64,000 nucleotides of DNA, from contig CALRHR010000002.1 of the NCBI GenBank assembly GCA_943359485.1, positions 24,992-88,991 on the forward strand, given 5' to 3'. Below, piece by piece: positions 16,421-62,053 of the stretch. Positions within the stretch are counted from its first letter, which is position 1, and each line of letters begins with the position of its first letter. The translations under genes were made by a program, and so were the position numbers. The notes under the pieces were generated by a model. That model was not told where the DNA came from, searched no databases, and worked only from the letters and a program-made list of their open reading frames with translations. The stretch is from Candidatus Nomurabacteria bacterium. Lineage in GTDB: Bacteria; Patescibacteriota; Minisyncoccia; Phycocordibacterales; UBA9973.

Positions 16421-16489
16421 GTGAGCGTAGTTCAGTTTGCCTCGCCAACCACCGCCTGAGCGGGGCGAGGCGGGGTGAAGTAGAACGCT
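16421..16489 (+). pseudogene. 5' fragment of a tRNA-Ile-like gene (acceptor and D-arm) interrupted by a 44-nt GC-rich hairpin insert
   Basis: gtgagcgtagttcagt and tagaacgct match positions 1-16 and 19-27 of the intact tRNA downstream (15/16 identity). The insert ttgcctcgcc...ggcgaggcggggtgaag contains a perfect 8-bp stem gcctcgcc/ggcgaggc. No anticodon or T arm follows. Confidence 0.4.
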
Positions 16490-16513: not shown

Positions 16514-16585
16514 GCGAGCGTAGTTCAGTGGTAGAACGCTGTCCTGATAAGACAGAGGTCGAAGGTCCGATTCCTTCCGCTCGCA
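16514..16585 (+). tRNA. tRNA-Ile (anticodon GAU)
   Basis: Cloverleaf folded by hand: acceptor gcgagcg/cgctcgc, D-stem gttc/gaac, anticodon stem ctgtc/gacag with loop ctGATaa, T-arm gaagg-tccgatt-ccttc, discriminator A. No encoded CCA. Confidence 0.8.
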
Positions 16586-26771: not shown

Positions 26772-27011
26772 GTGGTTATGAAAAAATCAATTCACAATTA
26801 TACAGCCGTATTTGAAAGAAATGAAAACAATGGCTATACTGTTACGGTTCCTTCGCTTCCTGGTCTTGTTACCGAAGGGAGGAACTTAGATGATGCTCGT
26901 AAAATGGCAACCGAAGCTATCGAGTGCTATTTAGCAGGCCTTAAAGTAGACAAGAAGCAACTTCCAGTCGAGGGAGATATTGCCAGCATCAGGCTTTCGG
27001 TATTTGCATAA
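26772..27011 (+). CDS. hicB: HicB-family antitoxin
   Basis: YTAVFERNENNGYTVTVPSLPGLVTEGRNLDDARKMATEAIECYLAG is the canonical HicB/UPF0150 N-domain. Confidence 0.8.
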   Translation: MVMKKSIHNYTAVFERNENNGYTVTVPSLPGLVTEGRNLDDARKMATEAIECYLAGLKVDKKQLPVEGDIASIRLSVFA

Positions 27012-27012
27012 T

Positions 27013-27243
27013 ATGCCTCGACTCAAGCGTCTTACCGCCAAGGATGTATGTAAAATTCTACACAGTTCTGGATTCTTTGTGCATCATACTCATGGTAGCC
27101 ATGTGCACTTACGACATCCTGAAAAATTGCATTTGCGTGTGGTCGTGCCATATCACAACCGAATTCTTGCACCAAAAACATTGAAATCAATCATTGTTCA
27201 AGCAGAATTATCCAGGGAGGAAATTAAGAATTTTTTTAATTAA
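27013..27243 (+). CDS. hicA: HicA-family mRNA interferase toxin
   Basis: MPRLKRLTAKDVCKILHSSGFFVHHTHGSHVHLRHPEKLHLRVVVPYHNRILAPKTLKSIIVQAEL is the YcfA/HicA fold with the conserved His. It starts 2 nt after the hicB stop. Confidence 0.8.
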   Translation: MPRLKRLTAKDVCKILHSSGFFVHHTHGSHVHLRHPEKLHLRVVVPYHNRILAPKTLKSIIVQAELSREEIKNFFN

Positions 27244-27268
27244 AATAAGAAAATGTTAGTATAAATTT

Positions 27269-29616
<2,348 letters not shown>

Positions 29617-30584: not shown

Positions 30585-31328
30585 ATGTCTAATTTCTACA
30601 TTGTGGCGACGCCAATAGGAAATATGGGGGACATCACACTCCGGGCAATTGAGACACTTAAAAATGTGGATTTAATTTTATGTGAAGATACCCGCCAGAC
30701 GAAAAAACTTTTAGATAAATATAATATTAATAAACTGACGATGAGCTATCCATCTGATGATGTAGCCGAGAAAAATTCTAGGCAGAGTAATAAATTAGAC
30801 AAAATTTTTGCATTTCTAGAAGAAGGGAAAGATTTAGCCCTAGTGTCAGACGCTGGCACACCGGGTATTTCTGATCCGGGGGCAATGCTCGTGTCAAAAA
30901 TTAAAGAAAGATTCGACCTCTCCCCCAGCCCCTCTCCGAATCTCGGAGAGGGTGGCCGAAGGCCGGGTGAGGTGAATGTGATTCCTATACCCGGCCCCTC
31001 TGCCGTAATCACCGCGCTGTCGGCTTCGGGATTACCAACGCATGAATTCACATTTCTTGGATTTTTGCCACACAAAAAGGGAAGGGAGACATTGTTTAAA
31101 GAAATTGCGCTAGCGAAAAGGACTTTTGCGTTTTACGAATCTCCGCACAGAATTTTAAAAACTTTAGAATCGCTCGTTAAATTCTGTCCAGAGAAAAAAG
31201 TCTGCCTTGCTCGCGAGCTTACGAAAATTTATGAAGAATTCAAAACTGGCTCACCCAGAGAGGTTTTGGAATATCTAGAAAAAAATAAAGAAAAACAAAG
31301 AGGGGAATTCACAGTTATTGTTTCATAG
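30585..31328 (+). CDS. rsmI: 16S rRNA (cytidine1402-2'-O)-methyltransferase
   Basis: YIVATPIGNMGDIT...LALVSDAGTPGISDPG...IPIPGPSAVITALSASGLP...FLGFLP matches RsmI throughout. It carries a ~19-aa in-frame insert (FDLSPSPSPNLGEGGRRPGE). Confidence 0.85.
   Translation: MSNFYIVATPIGNMGDITLRAIETLKNVDLILCEDTRQTKKLLDKYNINKLTMSYPSDDVAEKNSRQSNKLDKIFAFLEEGKDLALVSDAGTPGISDPGAMLVSKIKERFDLSPSPSPNLGEGGRRPGEVNVIPIPGPSAVITALSASGLPTHEFTFLGFLPHKKGRETLFKEIALAKRTFAFYESPHRILKTLESLVKFCPEKKVCLARELTKIYEEFKTGSPREVLEYLEKNKEKQRGEFTVIVS
30915..30977 (+). repeat. GC-rich palindromic mini-element, family A/B, inserted in frame in rsmI
   Basis: gacctctcccccagcccctctccgaatctcggagagggtggccgaaggccgggtgaggtgaat. It shares its 5' and 3' ends (gacctctcccc.a.cccctctcc ... 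ggtgaggtgaat) with 35195-35254 and has stem ctctcc/ggagag. Confidence 0.7.
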
Positions 31329-31333
31329 TATAA

Positions 31334-31657
31334 TTATTTCAACTTATGTTTCAAGCAAGTGATGATAGACCAGTCGAAGCCACCCCGCTCGGCGAGGTAT
31401 TTCATTTTATCCAGCGCCCAGATGCAATCGTCGAGTTCTTCATTACACGCCACATAAAGCTTTTTTGCTTCGCTTGCTAGTTTGTTGTAAGCATATCTAC
31501 CGTTATAAAATGCCTTCGGCATTTTTTCCCAGCCGTTCATTTTGTAGTAACAGTTGACTATTTCATGCACTGGATTTACGGCTTGTTTATGTTTTTTTAA
31601 GTTATCCAAATAGCCTTCAAAGGGATTTTTTAGAGTATCGTTTTCTTTTTGAGTCAT
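31334..31657 (-). CDS. Hypothetical protein (sole minus-strand gene in this neighbourhood)
   Basis: 107-aa ORF with Cys/Trp/Tyr-rich composition and no motif recognised. Confidence 0.35.
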   Translation of the reverse strand: MTQKENDTLKNPFEGYLDNLKKHKQAVNPVHEIVNCYYKMNGWEKMPKAFYNGRYAYNKLASEAKKLYVACNEELDDCIWALDKMKYLAERGGFDWSIITCLKHKLK

Positions 31658-31695
31658 ACTTTGATTTTAGCACAAATATAATATATTATGACCAT

Positions 31696-32709
31696 ATGGG
31701 TATTTTTACTAAAAAGCTAGGAATAGACCTGGGGACAGCCAATACCCTGGTCTTTTTTCCGGGTAAAGGGATTATCTTAAACGAGCCTTCGGTAGTAGCG
31801 GTTTCTGAACGAGACAATAAAATTCTAGCTATAGGTTTCGAAGCCAAGGATATGATAGGCAAAACTCCGGAATCTATAGTAACTTATTTGCCAATGAAAG
31901 ATGGAGTGATTGCGGATTATCGGGTGACAGAAGCGATGCTCCATTATTTTATAAACAAAGTCCTTGGAAGATTTAACTTTTTTAAACCAGATGTAATGAT
32001 TTCTGTGCCGGCGGGAGTAACGAGCACAGAGAGGCGAGCAGTGATAGAGGCGGCGATTCGCGCAGGTGCCAAGAATGCATTCGTTGTGAAAGAGCCAATT
32101 CTTGCAGCTATCGGTGCAGGAATTCCGATTTACGAATCAAAAGGACACATGGTTGTGGATATCGGTGGAGGTACGACAGATGTGGCAGTGATATCACTCG
32201 GAGGAATCGTTGCTTCGACTTCAGTAAAATGCGCCGGTAATAAAATAGATGCTGCAATAGCAGACTATATCAAAAAAACTTTCAACCTAGCCATCGGAGA
32301 CAGAACTGCCGAAGAAGTAAAAATAAAAATCGGCGCAGCAGTGCCACTAGAAGAAGAGCTCAGTGTTACTATAAAAGGAAGGGATTATATCCAAGGTTTA
32401 CCACGTTCAGCCAGAGTCTCGACAAATGAGATAGTAAAAGCTATCGATCCAGAACTTAGGCAAATAATCAAAGCTATCAAGGAAGTTCTACAAGAAACTC
32501 CGCCGGAGCTCGCTTCAGATATTATTGACCAAGGAATTATTATGACTGGTGGGTCATCACTCTTGCGGAATTTTCCTGATTTGGTTTACCGCAAAACCGG
32601 AGTGAAAGCGTCCCTAGCTGAAGATGCCCTATTTTGTGTCGCTAAAGGTACGGGGATAGCCTTAGAACACTTAGATGTCTACAAGAAGACTGTGCTCAGT
32701 AAAAAATAA
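31696..32709 (+). CDS. mreB: Rod-shape-determining actin homolog MreB
   Basis: LGIDLGTANTLVF (phosphate-1), DIGGGTTDVAVISLGG (phosphate-2), and an adenosine motif near the C-terminus. Confidence 0.9.
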   Translation: MGIFTKKLGIDLGTANTLVFFPGKGIILNEPSVVAVSERDNKILAIGFEAKDMIGKTPESIVTYLPMKDGVIADYRVTEAMLHYFINKVLGRFNFFKPDVMISVPAGVTSTERRAVIEAAIRAGAKNAFVVKEPILAAIGAGIPIYESKGHMVVDIGGGTTDVAVISLGGIVASTSVKCAGNKIDAAIADYIKKTFNLAIGDRTAEEVKIKIGAAVPLEEELSVTIKGRDYIQGLPRSARVSTNEIVKAIDPELRQIIKAIKEVLQETPPELASDIIDQGIIMTGGSSLLRNFPDLVYRKTGVKASLAEDALFCVAKGTGIALEHLDVYKKTVLSKK

Positions 32710-32724
32710 TAAATCAGGTCGTTA

Positions 32725-32780
32725 GGCACTAGGCTCTAGGAAACTAGTTAAAGCCTAAAGCCTAAAGCCTAAAGCCTATG
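32725..32780 (+). repeat. CTAG-rich intergenic element with (AGCCTAA)x4 array ending in the start codon of the holB-like gene
   Basis: ggcactaggctctaggaaactagttaaagcctaaagcctaaagcctaaagcctATG. Its core is identical to 29627-29660. Confidence 0.7.
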
Positions 32781-33500
32781 ATTTCAAAACATTTAGATAA
32801 AGATAACCTGCATCACGCCTACCTGATAGAGGGTGCGCGGGAAGAAATTTTACAGGAAGTTTTAGAATTTATTGAAAGCTTAGGAATACAGACTAACGCT
32901 AACCCAGATTTTCTCCATATTTCGTTTGATTCTTTTAAAGTCGATGATGCGCGTGAATTGAAATCTTTAGGAAAAGAAAAAGGTTTTTCTGTTGAAAAAA
33001 ATTCCAAGAAAATATTCATAATTTCTGCCAACAGTTTTCTCCTAGAAGCCCAAAATACTCTCTTAAAGATGTTTGAAGAGCCTATAGAGAACACGCACTT
33101 TTTTGTTATAGTCCCAGACAAGAATGCATTGCTGGACACTTTTGTTTCCAGATTTTATTTGATTTCTCATATATCTAAGATAGGTGAAGGGGTCAAAGAT
33201 GCGGAGAAGTTTATCGCTATGTCGTTGCGTAACAGAATTGATTTTATAAAAGAATTACTGGCTGAACCAGAAGAAGGGGAAGACGAGGGAGAAACTATTA
33301 TTTTGGATTCTACACGCTCAAAAGCTATAAAATTTTTAAATGAGCTTGAATCTATTTTACACCAAAAGTTTGTGTCAAAGACCGTCTTTGACACTAGTTT
33401 ATTTGAACACTTTTTTAAAGTTCGTGAATTCTTGCGTATGCCTGGTAGTTCGACCAAAACTTTAATGGAATCTGTGGCACTCATTATTCCTAATTTTTGA
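32778..33500 (+). CDS. holB: DNA polymerase III delta-prime-like clamp-loader subunit (short)
   Basis: HAYLIEGAREE mirrors the HolB HAYLF.G N-terminal motif. No Walker A (expected for delta prime); 240 aa. Confidence 0.5.
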   Translation: MISKHLDKDNLHHAYLIEGAREEILQEVLEFIESLGIQTNANPDFLHISFDSFKVDDARELKSLGKEKGFSVEKNSKKIFIISANSFLLEAQNTLLKMFEEPIENTHFFVIVPDKNALLDTFVSRFYLISHISKIGEGVKDAEKFIAMSLRNRIDFIKELLAEPEEGEDEGETIILDSTRSKAIKFLNELESILHQKFVSKTVFDTSLFEHFFKVREFLRMPGSSTKTLMESVALIIPNF

Positions 33501-33529
33501 AATTGATATTTTAATGTTATACTAAAACC

Positions 33530-34081
33530 ATGCAATACAATTTTACGACTTTCAAAACGGAATTAAAAAAGGTGGAGGAGTTTTTGGGCAAGGAATATAG
33601 GGAGCTCAATATCGGGCGGGCGTCACCCATGGTTTTGGATAGTATTTCTGTTGAATCATATGGGGCATGGGTGCCACTCAAAAATGTCGCCACGGTGTCC
33701 ATCGAAGATCCGAAGACTTTGCGTATTGCTCCCTGGGACAAGAGCCAAGTAAAAGAAATAGAGAAAGCTATTAATGTTGCAAATCTAGGGTTGTCAGTTG
33801 CGACTGACGACATGGGTATCAGAGTTATTTTTCCGCAGTTGACAACAGAGACCAGGCAAACCTTGGCAAAAGTTTTGAAAGAAAAATTAGAGGAATCGAG
33901 GATTACCGTGCGTCGCGAGCGGGAGAAAATTTCGAAAGATATAGAGGAAAAAGAAAAGTTAGGGGAGATGACGGAAGATGAAAAATTCCGTGCCAAGGAT
34001 GAACTACAAAAAATTATTGATGAAGTAAATAAAAACCTAGAAGCAAGTTTTGAAAAGAAAGAGAAGGAAGTAATGGGCTAA
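33530..34081 (+). CDS. frr: Ribosome recycling factor
   Basis: LNIGRASPMVLDSISVESYGAWVPLKNVATVSIEDPKTLRIAPWDKS...TTETRQTLAKVLK. Confidence 0.9.
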   Translation: MQYNFTTFKTELKKVEEFLGKEYRELNIGRASPMVLDSISVESYGAWVPLKNVATVSIEDPKTLRIAPWDKSQVKEIEKAINVANLGLSVATDDMGIRVIFPQLTTETRQTLAKVLKEKLEESRITVRREREKISKDIEEKEKLGEMTEDEKFRAKDELQKIIDEVNKNLEASFEKKEKEVMG

Positions 34082-34086
34082 AGTAA

Positions 34087-35196
34087 ATGAATATTTTAAT
34101 TTTTGTCATAATTTTATTGGTCTTAGTTTTAGTTCATGAGTTTGGGCATTTTTTTACTGCGAAAAAATTCGGTATTAGGGTGGATGAATTTGGTTTTGGT
34201 TTTCCACCAAAATTATTTGGCATAAAAAAAGGGGAGACCGAATACACATTCAACTTATTACCTATTGGGGGTTTTGTGAAGATTTTCGGTGAGAATCCTG
34301 ATGAAGAAAATACGAATGGGCCAGATAGTAAAAGAAGTTTTGTAAATAAACCAAAATGGAAACAAGCCATAGTTCTTTTTGCTGGAGTTTTCATGAATTT
34401 TATGTTGGCTTGGTTTTTATTTTCTATTGGTTTTATGTCTGGGCTTCCGACTTCAGTCGGTAGTGAACCATGGGGTTATGAGCTTTCTGATGTCAACACA
34501 GTAATAGTTTCTGTATTACCAGATTCTCCTGCTGAAAAAGCAGGATTAAAATCAGGAGATAAAATATTTTCTATGTATTATCCACATCAATCTATTGGTA
34601 TTTCTCCGGGTTCAACAAGTCCAGTTCTTATTAAGGATGCAATAATTAGAAATCCTAACCAAGAAATTGTAATTACATATATTCGTGGTAAAAATCAACT
34701 ATATAAAACAAAAGTAATTCCTGTAGTTAGTTCTACTAGTGGCAAACCCTCAATAGGCATAGCCATGGATCAAATAGGCACAGCCAAATTGCCATTTTTT
34801 ACAGCTTTTAAAGAAGGAATGGCTCTAACTCTATTTGTGACCAAAGGCACTGTGCTAGGGCTTTATGGGCTTATTCTAGATAGCATACAAGGCAAAGGTA
34901 GCTTTGATTCAGTCACGGGGCCTATCGGTATGGTGGGCATAGTGGGGGATGCGTATGAATTTGGTTTTGTGTATTTGCTCAGTTTTGCTGCCCTTATTTC
35001 TATCAACTTGGCAATTATAAATTTACTTCCATTCCCGGCGCTTGATGGTGGACGACTTTTTTTCCTGCTAATTGAAAAAATAAAAGGTTCACGGATGAAT
35101 CCAAAATTTACTAATATGGCAAACATGATCGGTTTTGTGTTACTTATAATTCTAATGCTGGTAGTTACTTATCACGATGTGGTGAAATTGTTTTGA
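34087..35196 (+). CDS. rseP: Site-2 zinc metalloprotease RseP
   Basis: HEFGHFFTAKKFG (HExxH), a PDZ segment (VSVLPDSPAEKAGLKSGDKI), and the C-terminal LPFPALDGG motif. Confidence 0.85.
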   Translation: MNILIFVIILLVLVLVHEFGHFFTAKKFGIRVDEFGFGFPPKLFGIKKGETEYTFNLLPIGGFVKIFGENPDEENTNGPDSKRSFVNKPKWKQAIVLFAGVFMNFMLAWFLFSIGFMSGLPTSVGSEPWGYELSDVNTVIVSVLPDSPAEKAGLKSGDKIFSMYYPHQSIGISPGSTSPVLIKDAIIRNPNQEIVITYIRGKNQLYKTKVIPVVSSTSGKPSIGIAMDQIGTAKLPFFTAFKEGMALTLFVTKGTVLGLYGLILDSIQGKGSFDSVTGPIGMVGIVGDAYEFGFVYLLSFAALISINLAIINLLPFPALDGGRLFFLLIEKIKGSRMNPKFTNMANMIGFVLLIILMLVVTYHDVVKLF

Positions 35197-35254
35197 CCTC
35201 TCCCCAACCCCTCTCCTTGACAAGGAGAGGGGGAAGAAAGGGGTGAGGTGAATT
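35195..35254 (+). repeat. GC-rich palindromic mini-element, family A/B, filling the rseP-M24 peptidase spacer exactly
   Basis: gacctctccccaacccctctccttgacaaggagagggggaagaaaggggtgaggtgaat. It starts inside the rseP stop codon and ends 3 nt before the next ATG. Confidence 0.7.
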
Positions 35255-35257
35255 AAT

Positions 35258-35995
35258 ATGCAAAAAGTAAAGCTAATTCACGAAATTCGTGCAGTTAAAA
35301 ACAAAAAGGAACTTGCGAATATTGTTCGTGCGCAGAGAATAAGTGAGAAAGTACTAAGATATATCATCGGAGAATTAAAGTCTGGCATTACTGAAATACA
35401 AATTGCTAATTTAATTAAAAAAAAGTATATCAGCCATGGCGTAAATGTGTTATCTTTTCCGCCGATAGTTTCTTTTGGCAAAAATACAGCTAATATTCAC
35501 CATGAGCCTTCAAAAACAAAATTAAAAAAGGGAGACATAATAATGTTTGATTTCGGCTGTACGGTGAACCACTATTGTTCAGATATGACCCGAACATATT
35601 TCTGGGGTGATCCCAATATAAAGCAGAAGAAAGTTTATTTAGCGACCTTAGAAGCCATGGACAGAGCAATAAAGAAAATAGAAAGTGGTGAACGACGAGC
35701 AAAAATTATAGATAAATCTGCCAGAAGTTTTCTTGCAAAAAAATACAAAAATAATTTTCAACATGGTTTAGGTCATGGGGTAGGTACAGTTATACACGAG
35801 TGGCCGAATTTCAAACCGAAAAGCGAGGATATTTTGCCGACTGGCTGTGTGATGACTGTTGAGCCGGGGATATACATAAAAGGATTCGGTGGCGTGAGGG
35901 TTGAAGACATGATATTGATTACCCAAAAAAGTTGTAAAAATCTGACTAAAATACCTAAAAACTTGCAAAAAATAATATTAAACCCTATAATATAA
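35258..35995 (+). CDS. M24-family metallopeptidase (methionine aminopeptidase / Xaa-Pro peptidase-like)
   Basis: Pita-bread fold motifs: D..G..NHY.SDMTRT, HGLGHGVGTVIHEWP, and EPGIY...GGVRVED. Confidence 0.7.
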   Translation: MQKVKLIHEIRAVKNKKELANIVRAQRISEKVLRYIIGELKSGITEIQIANLIKKKYISHGVNVLSFPPIVSFGKNTANIHHEPSKTKLKKGDIIMFDFGCTVNHYCSDMTRTYFWGDPNIKQKKVYLATLEAMDRAIKKIESGERRAKIIDKSARSFLAKKYKNNFQHGLGHGVGTVIHEWPNFKPKSEDILPTGCVMTVEPGIYIKGFGGVRVEDMILITQKSCKNLTKIPKNLQKIILNPII

Positions 35996-50177: not shown

Positions 50178-51026
50178 ATGCAAAAAAAAATTATTTTAAA
50201 TTCTCCACGGCTTTTGGAATTAAAAAAGCATAAACGAAAGATTTTTTTGAGTAAATTCTGTTTCGTGCTTATTGGGCTGATAATAATTTTTGTTGGTCTT
50301 GGATTTCTATCTCGGATAAACAGATTAAATATCACGAATATTAATATTAATGGTAATAAAATAGTGGAGGTTGAAGAAATAAAAGAAAAAGTGGACCAAA
50401 ACCTTTTAGGTTATTATTTATGGCTTTTTCCAAAAACAAATATATTTTTCTATCCGAAAAGTAAAATAATACAAAGTTTATCCACAGAAATCAAAAGATT
50501 AAAAGATATCAACCTCACTATTAATGACAGTGGGACGCTGGAGGTTTTAGTTAAAGAGCGCACTGGTTTGTATACCTGGTGTGGTGTAATATTTGAGCCG
50601 GTTAGTGATAAAAGTAGTATGTGTTATTTTTTAGACGAAGATGGTTTTATGTTTGATGAGGCACCGTATTTTTCAGGGGAAGTTTATTTTAAATTTTATG
50701 GGGAAACAGTCGATTCTTATTTTGCAAAAAATAATTTTACTAAATTAGTTTTATTTAAAGAGATCTTGCAGCAAATGGGGTTAAAACCTGTCATGCTATA
50801 TAAAATGGGGAACAGTGATGTTAAAATTTTACTTTCAGCCACAAAATTCTCTACTACTAACCCGGAAATAATTTTCAAAACAGATGCTGATTTAGACATT
50901 ATGGCTGAAAATTTAGATGCTGCTCTAGACACTGAACCATTAAAAACCGATTTCCCAAAAAAGTATTCCTCACTTTTGTATATTGATTTACGGTATGGAA
51001 ATAAAGTAGTCTACAAATTCAAGTGA
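50178..51026 (+). CDS. Membrane-anchored FtsQ/DivIB-like (POTRA) protein
   Basis: N-terminal TM anchor (FCFVLIGLIIIFVGLGFL) followed by an ITNININGNKIVEVEEIKEKV POTRA-like start. The start was moved to ATG 50178. Confidence 0.4.
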   Translation: MQKKIILNSPRLLELKKHKRKIFLSKFCFVLIGLIIIFVGLGFLSRINRLNITNININGNKIVEVEEIKEKVDQNLLGYYLWLFPKTNIFFYPKSKIIQSLSTEIKRLKDINLTINDSGTLEVLVKERTGLYTWCGVIFEPVSDKSSMCYFLDEDGFMFDEAPYFSGEVYFKFYGETVDSYFAKNNFTKLVLFKEILQQMGLKPVMLYKMGNSDVKILLSATKFSTTNPEIIFKTDADLDIMAENLDAALDTEPLKTDFPKKYSSLLYIDLRYGNKVVYKFK

Positions 51027-52066
51027 GTAATTTCTGGGAAAAACTTAAAAAACCAATTTTTGCCCTAGCGCCAATGGCTGATGTTACTGACTGCGCTTTC
51101 AGACAAATAATTGCAAAATACGGCAAACCGGATATTTTCTGGACTGAATTCGTTTCAGCGGATGGCCTCGCTCATCCTATAGCCAGAGAAAAACTTTTGA
51201 TTGATTTAAAATATGGAGAGAATGAAAGGCCTATCGTGGCGCAAATTTTCGGAGGGAAGCCGGAGAATATAAAAATTGCCGCGGCCTTATGCAAAGATCT
51301 TGGCTTTGATGGTATAGACATAAATATGGGTTGCCCAGATAAGTCTGTTGAAAAGCAGTGCGCTGGCGCCGCGATGATGAAAAATCCCAAATTAGCTCGA
51401 GAAATTATTCGTGCAGCGCGCGAGGGTGGAGGCGGACTGCCGATTTCCGTGAAAACTCGGGTTGGTTATAATAGAAACGAAATTGAAACTTGGATTCCAG
51501 AACTTTTAAAAGAAAATTTAGCGGCGCTTACTGTGCATCTGCGTACTCGTAAAGAAATGTCGGATGTGCCGGCGCATTGGGAGATGATGAAAAGAATTGT
51601 AGAAATACGGGATGAGATGGGTGTGGAGACTTTAATTTTAGGAAATGGAGACATTATGAATTTAAAAGAAGCCGAAGAAAAAGTAAAAGAAACTGGATGC
51701 GATGGAGTGATGCTCGGTCGAGCAATTTTTGGGAATCCATTTTTATTCGCCCCCTGTGAAGGGGGAGATGCCAAAGGCAGAGGGGGTAAAGATGAAAAAA
51801 GAAAACTTGAAGTACTAATCGAGCACACAAAGCTTTTTGAAGAAATGCTTGGGAACAACCCCCTTCGCCCTCGCTACGCCAAGGCTACGCCGGGCGAGCA
51901 AGGCTTCGGCGGGTCAAGTAAAAATTTTGCTATTATGAAAAAGCATTTCAAGGCTTATGTCAATGGTTTTGACGGCGCCAAAGAACTGCGCATGAAATTA
52001 ATGGAGACTGAAAATGCTGCACAAGTAGAAGAAATAGTAAGTGATTTTTTAACCCGCCTTCGCTAA
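51023..52066 (+). CDS. dus: tRNA-dihydrouridine synthase
   Basis: ALAPMADVTDCAFRQI, INMGCP, and VMLGR. It contains two GC-rich in-frame inserts (APCEGGDAKGRGGKD and NPLRPRYAKATPGEQGFGGSS). Confidence 0.85.
   Translation: MSNFWEKLKKPIFALAPMADVTDCAFRQIIAKYGKPDIFWTEFVSADGLAHPIAREKLLIDLKYGENERPIVAQIFGGKPENIKIAAALCKDLGFDGIDINMGCPDKSVEKQCAGAAMMKNPKLAREIIRAAREGGGGLPISVKTRVGYNRNEIETWIPELLKENLAALTVHLRTRKEMSDVPAHWEMMKRIVEIRDEMGVETLILGNGDIMNLKEAEEKVKETGCDGVMLGRAIFGNPFLFAPCEGGDAKGRGGKDEKRKLEVLIEHTKLFEEMLGNNPLRPRYAKATPGEQGFGGSSKNFAIMKKHFKAYVNGFDGAKELRMKLMETENAAQVEEIVSDFLTRLR
51747..51787 (+). repeat. GC-rich palindromic mini-element, family E/F, inserted in frame in dus
   Basis: tcgccccctgtgaagggggagatgccaaaggcagagggggta is near-identical to 28182-28226. 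Confidence 0.65.
51857..51915 (+). repeat. Second GC-rich element inserted in frame in dus
   Basis: acccccttcgccctcgctacgccaaggctacgccgggcgagcaaggcttcggcgggtc shares cccttcgccct with the dnaX element. Confidence 0.55.
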
Positions 52067-52107: not shown

Positions 52108-53211
52108 ATGCACGATTTAGCACTATACAGAAAATATAGACCTAAAACTTTCAAAGAGGTTTTAGGGCAAGACCATATAGTAAAAGTCTTAGAAAGTTCA
52201 ATAGAAACGAATAAAGTTTCTCACGCCTACCTTTTTGTCGGCTCGCGTGGTACAGGCAAGACTTCTGTTGCCAGAATTTTTGCGAATGAAATTGGTGTAT
52301 CTCCAAATGACCTTTATGAAATTGATGCCGCTTCCAACAGGGGAATCGAGGACATAAAAGAACTGCGCGATGGCGCAAGAGTTCTGCCTTTTGATTCGAA
52401 ATACAAAATTTACATAATTGATGAAGTGCATATGCTTTCCAAAGACGCCTGGGGCGCGCTCTTGAAAACTCTCGAAGAACCACCCAAGCATGTAATTTTT
52501 ATTTTGGCGACAACCGAACTCCAAAAAGTTCCAGAGACGATAATTTCTCGTTGTCAGGTTTTTTCTTTTAAAAAAGCGTCGGACGCAATCTGTAAAAAAA
52601 TGTTGATTGATGTAGCCAAGAGTGAGGGCTTCGAACTCGATCCCGGAAGCGCTGAGCTTTTGACAATCTTAGCCGATGGGTCATTTCGTGATGGACTAGG
52701 AGAGCTACAGAAGGTCTTGAATTTTCACCCCACCCTTCGCCCTCCCCTTGTTAAGGGGAGGGTTGGGGAGGGGTCTAAAAAAATTACTCGAGAAGATGTG
52801 GAGAAAATAACCGGTGCGCCAAAGACGATCCTGGTGAATGATTTTATTTCAGCTATTGTCGAGAAAAATTTAGAAAGGGGAATTCAGACTGTTAAACATG
52901 CTTCGGAGATGAATTTAGATATGAAACTATATCTCAAACTTATTATCACAAAATTTCGCATGGCCATAATTCTTCGCTATGCGCCAAAACTCATAAGTGA
53001 CCCTTCGAATGAACTCAGGGCAAGCATGGCAGAGGATTTAAGTGAGACGGATTTGAATTTTTTGAAAACTTTAGTAAAAGAAGACCACGAAGGAATGATC
53101 CGTTCACCCGGGTTGGCGATACTGCTTGAAGCATATCAAAACATAGATTCGGCGTTTATCGCTGAGTTGCCACTCGAGCTTGCGTTGGTGAAGATTTTGG
53201 GGCAAGATTAA
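52108..53211 (+). CDS. dnaX: DNA polymerase III subunit gamma/tau (short form)
   Basis: YRPKTFKEVLGQDHIVKVL..HAYLFVGSRGTGKTSVARIFANE (Walker A), DEVHMLS, and the SRC motif (SRCQVFSF). It carries a ~17-aa GC-rich in-frame insert. Confidence 0.85.
   Translation: MHDLALYRKYRPKTFKEVLGQDHIVKVLESSIETNKVSHAYLFVGSRGTGKTSVARIFANEIGVSPNDLYEIDAASNRGIEDIKELRDGARVLPFDSKYKIYIIDEVHMLSKDAWGALLKTLEEPPKHVIFILATTELQKVPETIISRCQVFSFKKASDAICKKMLIDVAKSEGFELDPGSAELLTILADGSFRDGLGELQKVLNFHPTLRPPLVKGRVGEGSKKITREDVEKITGAPKTILVNDFISAIVEKNLERGIQTVKHASEMNLDMKLYLKLIITKFRMAIILRYAPKLISDPSNELRASMAEDLSETDLNFLKTLVKEDHEGMIRSPGLAILLEAYQNIDSAFIAELPLELALVKILGQD
52727..52775 (+). repeat. GC-rich palindromic mini-element, family C/D, inserted in frame in dnaX
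   Basis: caccccacccttcgccctccccttgttaaggggagggttggggaggggtc, with stem ccctcccc/ggggaggg. It is homologous to 60916-60966. Confidence 0.65.
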
Positions 53212-59128: not shown

Positions 59129-62053
59129 ATGATTTCTCGTATTTATGTGGTGCCTAAATCTGGAGCAACTAGGGCGGATTCTTATTTGCTTGACTCAAAA
59201 TTATCCAAAAAAGAGATCAAGAAACTGGCTGAGGCACTCGCCAATCCAATACTAGAAAACTACTATATAGATGAATCCCCAACAGTGGGGAATTTTTCTT
59301 TTGCGATCGAAATAGGTTTTAAGCCAGGGGTAACGGACAATGTTGGGAACACCGTGAAAGAAATTGCCAAAGATTTACTGCGCACAAAAAATAATTCTGA
59401 ATTTCAGGTTTACACTTCAAAAATTTTCTTCGTCTCCGGTTCAAAAAAAGATGCGGAGGAATTTGCCAGTTCGCTATATAACCCACTGATTGAGCGCGCC
59501 ACAGTTGTGTCAGTAAAAAATGGAACAATAAATTTCCCCACCCAAATGCCAAAAGTAATTCTCAAAAAAAGAAAGTCTGTGATAAATGTTTCCCTGAATG
59601 TTCCCAATGAAGAACTGATAAGAATAGGCAAAGAGGGGGTAATGGATCCAGATGGTACAAGAAGGGGTCCTTTGGCACTTGATTTATCGAGTATGCAGGT
59701 GATTCGTGATTATTTTAAAAAATTAAAGAGGAGCCCAACAGATATCGAGCTCGAATCTTTAGCACAAACATGGTCTGAACACTGCAAACACACGATTTTT
59801 GCAAATCCAATTGACGATATCAAAGATGGTTTGTATAAAACTTACATCAAAGGCGCGACAAATTTAATCCGCAAGCAAAAAAGCCAGAGAGGTCAGCAGG
59901 ATTTTTGTGTTTCTGTTTTCAGTGATAATTCCGGTGGAATAATTTTTGAAAAAGATTATTTAATCACGCATAAAGTAGAAACTCATAATAGTCCTTCCGC
60001 GCTCGACCCATTTGGTGGGGCCATCACCGGCATCGTAGGAGTGAATCGGGACACTATCGGCTTTGGATTAGGTGCTAAGCCCGTAGCAAATACTTATGGA
60101 TTTTGTTTTGGGTATCCAGAAGATAAAAGAAAATTATTCAAAAATAAAGACAAGAATGGCAACCCAACAAACCTCATGCTACCTCCGAGTAGAATCATGG
60201 ATGGAGTAATTAAGGGCATCAATGCTGGCGGAAACTGTTCCGGAATTCCGACTCTCAATGGATTTGTAAAATATGACGACAGGTATCGAGGTAAACCTCT
60301 GGTCTTCGCTGGAACTGTGGGGTTGATTCCACGAAAGTTGGGGACAAAATTTTTACACGAAAAAAAAGCCCGAGTTGGGGACTATATAGTGGTAGTTGGC
60401 GGAAAAGTTGGCCTCGACGGAGTGCATGGCGCTACATTTTCATCAGTGGCACTTGATTCAAATTCTCCAGCAACCGCAGTGCAGATAGGTGATCCGATTA
60501 CACAAAAAAAATTAAGTGACGCAATAGTAAAAGAAGCACGCGACATGAATTTATACCACAGCATCACCGACAACGGTGCAGGAGGAATTTCCTGTTCAGT
60601 AGCCGAAATGGCCAAGGAGTGTGGAGGAGCTGAAGTAAATCTTGAAAAAGTTCCGCTTAAATATCTTGGTCTGCGTCCTTGGGAAATTTGGATTTCAGAG
60701 TCCCAAGAGCGCATGACGCTTGCTGTACCTCCAAAAAAGTGGAAAAAATTTAAAGCGTTACTAGAGAGCCGTGGAGTTGAAGCGATGGCAATCGGGGAAT
60801 TTACGAATTCCAGAAAATGCGTAGTAAATTACAACGGCAAAAAAATAATGGATATGGATATGGAATTTCTACATAATGGATTACCAAAACAGCACTTACA
60901 AACAGAAAAAATTATACCCCCTCCTTTCTCCTCCCCCTACAGTAGGGGGAGGTTGGGTAGGGGTAATGATTACACCAAAACTTTGGAAACTCTACTTGGA
61001 AATATTAATTTAAGTGGATTTTCATTTATTTCACAACAATACGATCATGAAGTGCAAGGCTCTTCTGTGCTAAAACCTCTTTCCGGAAAGGGGCGTATAA
61101 ATACGGATGCGCAAATTTTTAAACCAGTTTTAAATTCAAACAAAGGAGTTGTCTTATCATCTGCGCTGTATCCTTCATATGGTGATATCAGCACTTACGA
61201 TATGGCTGCTTGCGCGCTCGACACTGCTGTCCGAAATACGATAGCTTGTGGCGGTAAATTGTCGCACTTGGCAATTTTAGATAATTTTTGCTGGTGCTCT
61301 TCTCACGACCCAAAACGGCTAGCGCAACTCGTGGATTCTGTAAAAGCTTGTTATGACTACGCGGTCGGCTACGGTACACCTTTTATCTCTGGTAAGGATA
61401 GCATGTTTAATGATTTTAAAGGTTATGACGAGAAAGGAAATCCTATCGCGATCTCTATTCCACCGACACTTCTGATATCTTCCATTGGAGTAATGCCCGA
61501 CATTTACAAAACTGTTTCGCCAGAATTTAAAAATAGTGGAGATATAATTTATTTACTCGGAGAGACAAAAGACGAACTTGGTGGTAGTAAATATTTAAAA
61601 ATGCTTACCCGCCGTAGCCTTGGCGAAGGCCGGGTCCCACAAGTTGATATTCAGAAGAATTTGAAAACTTACAAAGCTCTAGAGCAAGTTATAGAGCAGG
61701 AATTGGTAGCTTCGGCACTTTCTGTGACTTCGGGAGGTCTTGCAATAGCGCTCGCCAAAGCTTGCATAGGTGGAATGCTCGGCGCTAAAATTAGTGCGAC
61801 AAGCATACTGGAAGAATCAACCTCCTCTGAGGTAAAACTTTTTTCCGAAAGCCAGGGAAGAATTTTAGTATCTGTCTCGCCCAAAAATGTAAAAGAATTT
61901 GAAAAAATGATGAAAGGAGTTCCTTGTGCGAAGCTAGGAAAAGTTTCCAAAGGTAAAGAAGTAGTAGTTACTGATGGGAAGAATAAAATAATCAACACAA
62001 CCGTTAAAAATTTATACAAAATTTACCATAGATTTTCTAATTCTCAAAAATGA
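59129..62053 (+). CDS. purL: Phosphoribosylformylglycinamidine synthase (PurL, with N-terminal PurS-like domain)
   Basis: AIR-synthase-related duplicated domains (WSEHCKH, HNSPSALDPFGGAITG, DNGAGG). 974 aa. It contains a GC-rich in-frame insert (PPPFSSPYSRGRLGRGN). Confidence 0.88.
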   Translation: MISRIYVVPKSGATRADSYLLDSKLSKKEIKKLAEALANPILENYYIDESPTVGNFSFAIEIGFKPGVTDNVGNTVKEIAKDLLRTKNNSEFQVYTSKIFFVSGSKKDAEEFASSLYNPLIERATVVSVKNGTINFPTQMPKVILKKRKSVINVSLNVPNEELIRIGKEGVMDPDGTRRGPLALDLSSMQVIRDYFKKLKRSPTDIELESLAQTWSEHCKHTIFANPIDDIKDGLYKTYIKGATNLIRKQKSQRGQQDFCVSVFSDNSGGIIFEKDYLITHKVETHNSPSALDPFGGAITGIVGVNRDTIGFGLGAKPVANTYGFCFGYPEDKRKLFKNKDKNGNPTNLMLPPSRIMDGVIKGINAGGNCSGIPTLNGFVKYDDRYRGKPLVFAGTVGLIPRKLGTKFLHEKKARVGDYIVVVGGKVGLDGVHGATFSSVALDSNSPATAVQIGDPITQKKLSDAIVKEARDMNLYHSITDNGAGGISCSVAEMAKECGGAEVNLEKVPLKYLGLRPWEIWISESQERMTLAVPPKKWKKFKALLESRGVEAMAIGEFTNSRKCVVNYNGKKIMDMDMEFLHNGLPKQHLQTEKIIPPPFSSPYSRGRLGRGNDYTKTLETLLGNINLSGFSFISQQYDHEVQGSSVLKPLSGKGRINTDAQIFKPVLNSNKGVVLSSALYPSYGDISTYDMAACALDTAVRNTIACGGKLSHLAILDNFCWCSSHDPKRLAQLVDSVKACYDYAVGYGTPFISGKDSMFNDFKGYDEKGNPIAISIPPTLLISSIGVMPDIYKTVSPEFKNSGDIIYLLGETKDELGGSKYLKMLTRRSLGEGRVPQVDIQKNLKTYKALEQVIEQELVASALSVTSGGLAIALAKACIGGMLGAKISATSILEESTSSEVKLFSESQGRILVSVSPKNVKEFEKMMKGVPCAKLGKVSKGKEVVVTDGKNKIINTTVKNLYKIYHRFSNSQK
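60916..60966 (+). repeat. GC-rich palindromic mini-element, family C/D, inserted in frame in purL
   Basis: accccctcctttctcctccccctacagtagggggaggttgggtaggggta, with stem ctccccc/gggggag. Confidence 0.65.

Follow-up and report, generated by a model that had tools for sequence, protein, structure and literature searches.

A short G/C-rich palindromic repeat recurs in a 64,000-nucleotide (nt) stretch of Candidatus Nomurabacteria DNA (contig CALRHR010000002.1; this 64-kb stretch is hereafter the window), where two of its copies, designated A and B, lie respectively within the methyltransferase gene rsmI and between the genes for an rseP-like M50 peptidase and an M24 peptidase. We consider copies A and B to be non-coding repeats of the BoxC/PIT/TM class that have been gained and lost over time and that most likely represent solo remnants, or derivatives mobilised in trans, of a cassette carrying a DUF559 gene, and we put the probability of this reading at roughly 70%. 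Both copies are found where the first-pass annotation of this DNA had placed them, copy A at 30915-30977 (plus strand, 63 nt) and copy B at 35195-35253 (plus strand, 59 nt), and a pairwise alignment bears out its description of a common start, gacctctcccc(c/a)a(g/a)cccctctcc, a ctctcc/ggagag stem, which in the alignment extends to CCCTCTCC/GGAGAGGG, and a common 3' end. The termini are identical, with an 11-nt 5' end, GACCTCTCCCC, and a 12-nt 3' end, GGTGAGGTGAAT, each of which has two exact matches in the window; when up to one mismatch is allowed, the 11-mer has 6 matches vs 0.33 expected. The annotation had proposed a search for further copies as the means of exposing a chance resemblance, and this search returned additional copies within the window, elsewhere on the contig, in relatives and more widely among bacteria, such that A and B can be treated as members of one dispersed repeat family with conserved ends.

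The family is defined by a hairpin and a mirror-image G-block (and C-block), and not by its termini; the first-pass annotation overlooked this mirror symmetry, as it did four further copies, C to F. In the core design, a homopyrimidine arm, CCCCTCTCC, and a homopurine arm, GGAGAGGGG, form a hairpin that is followed by a G-block, GGGGTGAGG, mirroring the purine arm. Copies A, B and C add a 5' C-block (CCTCTCCCC) that mirrors the pyrimidine arm, generating a nested, four-block palindrome both strands of which satisfy the triplex rule. Copy A is thus composed of the C-block CCTCTCCCC (30917-30925), a pyrimidine arm CCCTCTCC (30930-30937), a purine arm GGAGAGGG (30945-30952), a second loop with the mini-hairpin tggccgaaggcc, the mirror G-block GGGTGAGG (30965-30972) and a TGAAT tail; copy B reads CCTCTCCCC aa CCCCTCTCCT tgaca AGGAGAGGGG gaagaaa GGGGTGAGGT gaat, and its two strands both comply with the strict class II triplex rule, the blocks being 10 nt long. 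The outer arms form an imperfect inverted repeat of 10-11 bp, whose conserved T.T "mismatch" is explained by the fact that both outer blocks mirror the inner duplex and do not simply complement each other. The window contains at least six copies, four of them in frame in genes (rsmI, dnaX, purL and dus), and eight copies are present on the 102-kb metagenome contig, six in coding sequence, with the two outside the window both lying within called genes. Copy C (52723-52775, minus strand) is a further four-block palindrome, in frame in dnaX (open reading frame (ORF) 52108-53211) with the peptide HPTLRPPLVKGRVGEGS, and differs from A and B by compensatory T-to-C and A-to-G changes that leave both stems paired. 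Copy D (60916-60964, minus strand) is in frame in a variable linker of purL (ORF 59129-62053; peptide IPPPFSSPYSRGRLGRG) and consists of a hairpin, CCTCCCCCT/AGGGGGAGG, a mirror block, GGAGGGGGT, and a degenerate 5' block, ACCCCTACCC. Copies E and F form a subfamily, of which E (28185-28226, plus strand) is a three-block, long-loop form in the atpG-atpD spacer (CCCCCTT gtg AAGGGGG, a second loop with the mini-hairpin tgtcc-gga-ggaca, and the mirror block GGGGGTA), while F (51750-51787, plus strand) lies in frame in dus (ORF 51023-52066; peptide APCEGGDAKGRGGKD) with the blocks CCCCCT gtga AGGGGG, the mini-hairpin tgcc-aaa-ggca and the mirror block GGGGGT.

These six loci were located by a hairpin scan and then by a formal triplex-motif scan, in which a perfect hairpin with an all-purine 3' arm had to be followed downstream by a third block mirroring that arm, only G being accepted opposite G, and A or T opposite A, with zero mismatches. 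The formal scan returned nine matches at the six loci vs none in 30 simulated windows, and the combined hairpin and tail pattern three matches in the window vs 0.00 expected. All six copies have perfect stems of 6-10 bp and third blocks without a mismatch. The loops span 2-5 nt in C, D and the minus strands of A and B, while second loops of 7-18 nt, often with a mini-hairpin, occur in E and F and on the plus strands of A and B. As single-stranded DNA, the copies have folding free energies between -18 and -20 kcal/mol, with z-scores from -4.1 to -4.7, values that take account of Watson-Crick pairing only. The elements stand out because the window has a G+C content of only ~37%, as against 65-70% in the element segments. 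Elsewhere in the window, at 16432-16489 and 25 nt upstream of a tRNA gene (16514-16585), there is a strong GC hairpin (TTTGCCTCGCC...GGCGAGGCGGG, free energy -20.9 kcal/mol, z-score -5.3) followed by GGGGTGAAGT; this may be a relative of the family, though its arm is not all pyrimidine.

Comparisons of orthologous sites, many of which are empty or hold a copy in the opposite orientation, establish that copies have been gained and lost at the DNA level. Homologs of RsmI and DnaX with ~80% identity carry the names Candidatus Nomurabacteria or Paceibacterota. Among related Nomurabacteria loci (L003-L006), L005 and L006 have no insert at the rsmI site and L003 and L004 hold one in the reverse orientation, whereas in the window the site is filled in the forward orientation. 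Among RsmI orthologs more generally the site is a hot spot, with many empty examples (e.g. KEKLI-DVKVIPVPG) and others carrying the inserts NLTPSPLSLSRRGVGGEV or NPTLRPPLSGEGWGEV. DnaX orthologs are likewise either empty (NFS-KSKKI) or filled (NFHPTLRPPL.KGRVGEGSKKI), the atpG-atpD spacers of L003-L006 do not contain copy E, and a single site in Dus is occupied by an E/F-type copy in the window and by one of A/B type (TSPPTPLLDKERGAKGEVRS) in another Nomurabacteria locus, L048. The same protein sites have therefore been hit repeatedly, in either orientation and by different subfamilies. Copy number varies accordingly among relatives, with nine copies in 20 kb of L004 and none in L005 or L006. 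The first-pass annotation had also called for a check for target-site duplications at the ends of the element, and none is present at any copy. The pentamer GATTC, which flanks copy A on both sides, was considered as such a duplication and rejected, since it would imply an insert length that disrupts the reading frame and it is absent at the other copies.

In class, the family is a variant of the intrastrand-triplex repeats variously named BoxC, PIT or TM, and is new in its mostly in-frame location, its host in the candidate phyla radiation (CPR), and its four-block and long-loop forms. The earlier BoxC and PIT literature includes work by Bachellier et al. in the 1990s and Hoyne et al. in 2000, and to our knowledge the class has been recognised for ~30 years without a known origin, mover or function. 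Literature queries with sequence words brought up only eukaryotic papers that bear no relation to the repeat. The Escherichia coli member, TM_ECO (formerly BoxC, PIT elements), has the consensus CCCTCNCCC N3-6 GGGNGAGGG N3 GGGNGAGGG; 262 proteobacterial genomes together contain 3610 copies, and cyanobacteria possess G/C-rich motifs in abundance (Holder et al. 2015, PMC4666352). The isolated E. coli single strand forms a triplex in vitro, whereas purine-motif triplexes do not form in RNA (PMC4666352). The latter property, together with the occurrence of copies in both orientations to transcription, implies that the constraint on these sequences acts on DNA. We envisage that a single DNA strand could fold as a hairpin, with a third strand bound through G.GC, A.AT and T.AT triplets.

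The class is widely distributed, and its mirror design is conserved over large phylogenetic distances. The inner hairpin and tail pattern was found at at least 120 loci of a species-representative genome collection, in genomes of 31-71% G+C, and the matches listed include Cyanobacteria, Chloroflexota, Bacteroidota, Planctomycetota, Proteobacteria, Acidobacteriota and one Nomurabacteria genome (L048). The pattern also recurs in a collection of viral contigs, the matches listed there being likewise a lower bound. In a set of 146 cross-phylum matches, the free purine of the stem equals that of the tail in 145; the G-run of the tail equals that of the stem or exceeds it by one in 139, and equality was observed in 58% vs 27% upon permutation. 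The commonest second loops on one strand (TT, TTA and CC(G)) match the published TM types A and B. A BoxC-like query has matches in 5409 of 5426 E. coli genomes, at a median of 17 places per genome, and 17 E. coli genomes possess a four-block palindrome, CCCTCACCCCaaCCCTCTCCCacaGGGAGAGGGttGGGGTGAGGG, whose identity to a four-block query based on copy B is 85%. Salmonella is reported to lack TM_ECO. Other arrangements were also encountered, among them three tandem copies of the motif with a 78-nt period in a Bacteroidales metagenome-assembled genome (L018, 61-252) and five copies in 7.3 kb of a viral contig (L132).

The proposed parentage rests on the association of these motifs with DUF559, a Vsr-like PD-(D/E)XK endonuclease whose clade includes a group I intron homing endonuclease (PMC3424549). 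Among motif matches in other low-G+C genomes, 10 of 47 lie in long open frames, with Pfam-confirmed hosts that include a membrane subunit of the NADH:quinone oxidoreductase/Mrp-antiporter type (Proton_antipo_M), the succinate dehydrogenase flavoprotein and leucyl-tRNA synthetase (LeuRS). In two LeuRS genes (L025 and L089), a pair of motifs brackets an in-frame DUF559 domain, and all seven DUF559 ORFs in loci selected by the motif are bracketed by inverted motifs; one of the seven, in L066, has flanking motifs that fall outside the search pattern, and it was therefore not the flanks that selected this locus. The cassettes are laid out as a mirror C-block and hairpin, the ORF, and a hairpin and mirror G-block, or else in a flipped form with the mirror blocks facing inward. 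Removal of the DNA between the two hairpins reduces the cassette ends of L025, L089 and L086 to the four-block form seen in copies A, B and C. Furthermore, the peptides encoded at the LeuRS cassette ends (DLTPNPSP ... SPLLGRGVGGEV) correspond to the two halves of RsmI solo peptides (NLTPSPLSLSRRGVGGEV; DLSPSPSP...GEV).

To reduce selection bias, 80 metagenome loci were chosen by similarity to DUF559 alone, of which 72 have at least 150 nt on both sides. Of these 72 loci, 43 have a strict motif within 150 nt upstream of the DUF559 gene, 45 have one within 150 nt downstream, and 34 have motifs at both positions; the motif density near the gene is 3.4 per kb vs 0.18 per kb farther off in the same loci, an enrichment of ~18-fold. 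The two flanking motifs lie on either strand in near-equal numbers and are inverted to each other in the loci that were listed individually. In 24 of the 80 loci the cassette is part of an open frame longer than 250 amino acids, and those frames inspected are host genes, identified from their flanks as RecG, TsaB, LeuRS and a chorismate-synthase-like protein. Cassettes read in frame include those at L025 6560-7160, L089 6860-7480 and L080 4440-5080 and those of L308, L310, L313 and L300; for in-frame cassettes, LeuRS and a Type ISP restriction enzyme are hosts confirmed by Pfam, and RecG and TsaB are hosts recognised from flanking sequence. Pfam detected no intron or intein signature in the DUF559 cassettes. 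The association extends to viruses, in that 24 more distant viral DUF559 loci have motifs on both sides in 11 cases and on one side in four. In E. coli K-12, a degenerate hairpin is present at the stop codon of the DUF559 gene ycjD, and a BoxC element follows ~170 nt downstream of the gene. Upstream of ycjD (L248, 16760-16830), a perfect 16-bp palindrome, CACCTCATTCTGACAA...TTGTCAGAATGAGGTG, overlaps the start codon and is similar in its outer bases to the CACCTCA/TGAGGTG ends found in the window element. Among the papers searched, none connects DUF559 or ycjD with BoxC.

These observations suggest a mechanism in which the parent would be a DUF559 endonuclease gene set between two motifs in inverted orientation, and in which deletion between the two terminal hairpins would yield the four-block palindrome of copies A, B and C. 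The solo copies may accordingly be remnants akin to miniature inverted-repeat transposable elements (MITEs), or copies that the cassette mobilises in trans. A bolder proposal, to which we would give slightly less than even odds, is that BoxC/PIT repeats in general are the terminal inverted repeats of a pan-bacterial, and also phage-borne, mobile DUF559 cassette, that the cassette and its 50-60 nt solos are built for in-frame read-through in essential genes, and that DUF559 recognises the triplex-capable ends on single-stranded DNA. The essential-gene hosts named to date are LeuRS, RecG, TsaB and the Type ISP enzyme elsewhere, and RsmI, DnaX, PurL and Dus in the window.

Several results weigh against a DUF559 parentage or against membership of the BoxC/PIT/TM class. 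The support for a DUF559 cassette parent lies outside the Nomurabacteria lineage: searches of ~84 kb of the source contig (the window with its 10-kb flanks) and of ~90 kb of related Nomurabacteria DNA (L003-L006 and L048) revealed no DUF559 gene, and none of the 80 DUF559 loci consists of Nomurabacteria-like DNA. These 80 loci are the best matches to one DUF559 that is itself flanked by motifs, and the sample thus covers one subfamily. Among the LeuRS fragments compared, no single site displays the cassette, solo and empty states together, the site of the L089 and L300 cassettes being empty in ~45 related fragments with one unclear 25-amino-acid insert. An empty purL site was also not found, the comparison being confined to distant PurL homologs (at most 64% identity) with a variable linker. 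As for the class assignment, no window copy matches the strict TM_ECO consensus, the arms being shifted by one G (CCCCTCTCC vs CCCTCTCCC), and the published ITxF definition allows loops of 1-6 nt, a length exceeded by the second loops of E and F and of A and B on their plus strands. Finally, in vivo dimethyl sulphate (DMS) footprinting in E. coli did not detect the triplex (PMC4666352). In the course of the LeuRS comparison, it was also observed that the top LeuRS relatives all have lengths of 146-415 amino acids, even on contigs of 0.6-3.6 Mb; the genes could be called in pieces in these Bacteroidota, perhaps because they are broken by cassettes, or the short lengths could be a search artefact.

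Other explanations have to be weighed against the same evidence. An ordinary MITE, that is, a deletion derivative of an insertion sequence whose DDE transposase would bind its terminal inverted repeats (GACCTCTCCCC / GGGGTGAGGTG) and generate duplications of the target site, would account for the inverted repeat of the outer arms, the multiple copies and the empty or filled orthologous sites; such an origin is nevertheless very unlikely given the lack of target-site duplications, the absence of a transposase gene from the contig Pfam listings, the many copies in other phyla without the 5' arm, and a mirror-repeat rule that has no role in DDE transposition. A repetitive extragenic palindromic (REP) or REPIN-type palindrome, mobilised on single-stranded hairpins by the IS200/IS605-like tyrosine transposase RAYT, has in its favour that the window element is a short GC-rich hairpin without target duplications, that it occurs as singlets and inverted pairs, and that the triplex constraint would suit a stage as single-stranded DNA. 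Yet the stems of the window copies have no GTAG or CGTC tag, as defined in PMC3733652, beside them, the contig Pfam listings contain no Y1 transposase, and the gene bracketed by motifs is DUF559 and not RAYT, all of which leaves this option a slim prospect. The spread of the repeats without a dedicated enzyme, through replication slippage, template switching or gene conversion at structure-prone G/C tracts, with a secondary link to DUF559 such as homing of the endonuclease gene into motifs that were already there, is a possibility that we consider unlikely. It would be in keeping with the repeated use of the same protein sites by different subfamilies and orientations, with the failure to find an endonuclease gene on the contig, and with the published association of the TM motif with local sequence variability and not with mobile elements (PMC4666352), but near-identical 50-60 nt sequences at unrelated sites and across phyla would be hard to generate de novo, and the cassettes possess two complete, inverted terminal hairpins, not an ORF inside one motif. 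Chance similarity of GC-rich low-complexity sequence, which the C-runs and G-runs of the blocks might bring to mind, is given almost no weight in view of the simulated and expected counts cited above, the identical 11-nt and 12-nt ends, the compensatory stem changes and the recurrence of the same architecture in hundreds of loci.

A further alternative is that the element is a selected cis-regulatory sequence, with copy B serving the M24 gene as a promoter, a ribosome-binding site, or a hairpin that stabilises or terminates a transcript, and here the details of the copy B locus are informative. The rseP-like M50 peptidase gene occupies 34087-35196 (plus strand), and its TGA stop codon (35194-35196) overlaps the first bases of copy B; the M24 peptidase gene (35258-35995, plus strand) starts 4 nt after copy B. 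The first-pass annotation correctly had copy B begin within the rseP TGA, at its G, but placed its end 3 nt before the M24 ATG: the conserved 12-mer stops at 35253, leaving 4 nt (TAAT) ahead of the ATG at 35258, and the earlier end coordinate of 35254 takes in one extra T. Its view that copy B makes up essentially the whole spacer holds, since the rseP-M24 spacer is 61 nt here vs 3 nt in L004 and L005 (TAG act ATG and TAA gct ATG). The interval 35194-35253 is 60 nt, a multiple of three, and is directly followed by an in-frame TAA (35254-35256) which, judging from the sequence, is probably the original rseP stop codon. Copy B brings its own TGA to the original stop position, and RseP therefore terminates at the residue at which it does in relatives, with the C-terminus ..HDVVKLF shared with orthologs.

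The loop of copy B does read TTGACA (35218-35223), the copy forms a strong hairpin, and a GAGGTGA is located 6 nt ahead of the M24 ATG; it was on the first of these features that the annotation based its suggestion of promoter activity. The suggestion is not supported: no sigma-70-like site that includes the loop hexamer was called at 35218, the sequence 17 nt downstream, at the position of a -10 hexamer, is GGGGTG, and the loop is not conserved, the loops of the other copies all differing from that of B (gaatctc, ttaacaa, tactgta). PIT elements, moreover, had no promoter or terminator activity in earlier assays (Maher and colleagues, cited in PMC4666352). A terminator at copy B was rejected for want of a T-run and of any terminator-like call. 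As Shine-Dalgarno motifs are absent (positions -20 to -4) in 40 of the 44 long ORFs of the window, the organism appears not to rely on one, and GAGGTGA was for this reason also rejected as a donated Shine-Dalgarno motif. At the Rfam gathering thresholds, only tRNAs pass in the window and in eight other loci, with all matches at copy B far below threshold; no Rfam family matches, and a known RNA family was rejected. The copies are thus not promoters, terminators or RNA genes, and with four of the six lying within coding sequence in either orientation, a cis-regulatory role is highly improbable.

We therefore return to solo BoxC/PIT/TM-class repeats, probably of DUF559 cassette origin, and to their effects on host genes. 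The gene rsmI (30585-31328, plus strand) encodes the 16S rRNA C1402 2'-O-methyltransferase, and the annotation's claim that copy A is in frame is upheld: the copy starts on a codon boundary of this ORF and adds 21 codons, DLSPSPSPNLGEGGRRPGEVN. On alignment with E. coli RsmI (5hw4), the insert falls in the loop LVRTCRE-AG-IRVVPLPG. An AlphaFold model shows it as an unstructured segment between a helix (residues 98-109) and a strand (130-135), with a predicted local distance difference test (pLDDT) score below 50 at residues 114-127; the low confidence of this loop indicates that inserts sit where extra residues can be tolerated. The elements have few stop codons because they are G/C-rich. The copies found in this compact, AT-rich genome all occupy either tiny spacers or, in frame, loops and linkers of proteins, and this distribution suggests that copies are tolerated nowhere else. 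In E. coli, TM_ECO is reported to be always intergenic (PMC4666352), a rule from which four of the six window copies and six of the eight contig copies depart by their location in coding sequence.

A second GC-rich, in-frame insert of ~60 nt in dus (51855-51918; NNPLRPRYAKATPGEQGFGGSS), which is absent from the L048 ortholog, was considered as a family member and rejected, as it has no significant fold (z-score -0.29) and no triplex motif. In dnaX, a second small indel (52990-53020; PSNELRAS) is common to some DnaX orthologs, and further short inserts, with peptides of the RAG/AKAG type, occur in RsmI and Dus orthologs. Housekeeping genes in this group thus seem to harbour several families of mini-inserts. 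A heptamer, taaagcc, is repeated four times in tandem at 32742-32777, directly 5' of the ATG (32778) of a holB-like ORF, and a hicB/hicA toxin-antitoxin pair lies between atpA and atpG, within the ATP synthase operon (L001 6194-6659; window ~26780-27245).

The findings extend the reach of the triplex repeat class into the candidate phyla radiation, where, in a compact genome, copies occupy in-frame positions in loops of essential proteins in the manner of the Rickettsia palindromic elements (RPE). Such inserts enlarge and diversify housekeeping proteins and can mislead both annotation and phylogeny. A DUF559 gene bracketed by repeats, often in frame in host genes, constitutes a testable candidate for the parent, and if the proposal is correct, the DUF559 cassette would explain the BoxC/PIT repeats and provide a very large domain family, so far of unknown function, with a role.

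Among known systems, the RPE are small palindromic repeats that also occur in a reduced AT-rich genome, in frame in conserved housekeeping genes to which they add a short peptide. They are, however, ~100-150 bp in length, restricted to Rickettsia and without a homopurine/homopyrimidine mirror design, whereas the window element is 53-63 nt long and resides in another host; the two are set apart here on the description of the RPE. The GC clusters and double-hairpin elements of fungal mitochondria are similarly short, G/C-rich hairpins in a very AT-rich genome that are occasionally in frame and polymorphic for presence or absence, but they belong to another host system, differ in sequence, and have no described triplex mirror block. 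MITEs and REP/REPIN elements share with the window element the character of non-autonomous, short palindromic repeats, for which a nuclease-encoding parent is proposed here; the window element differs in having no target duplications, GTAG/CGTC tag, or DDE or Y1 transposase, its candidate partner being a DUF559 PD-(D/E)XK endonuclease. The closest likeness is to BoxC/PIT/TM_ECO and the cyanobacterial triplex motifs, with which the family shares the block order of pyrimidine arm, loop, purine arm, short loop and mirror G-block (the class II purine motif), the core sequences CCCTCTCC / GGAGAGGG / GGGTGAGG, the second-loop types on one strand, and a multi-copy habit marked by strong variation in number among relatives, inverted pairs and no target duplications. 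The window copies depart from these elements in lying outside the strict consensus, in their in-frame positions in genes (four of six), in their CPR host, and in the long second loops with a mini-hairpin that some possess. With respect to the candidate parent, the Vsr-like/EDxHD homing endonucleases of the DUF559 clade (I-Bth0305I in group I introns; 'fractured genes', PMC2677866; PMC3424549) belong to the same fold family and likewise reside within host genes, but the known members are located in introns or between split inteins, whereas the cassettes described here are bounded by triplex-type inverted repeats and read through in frame.

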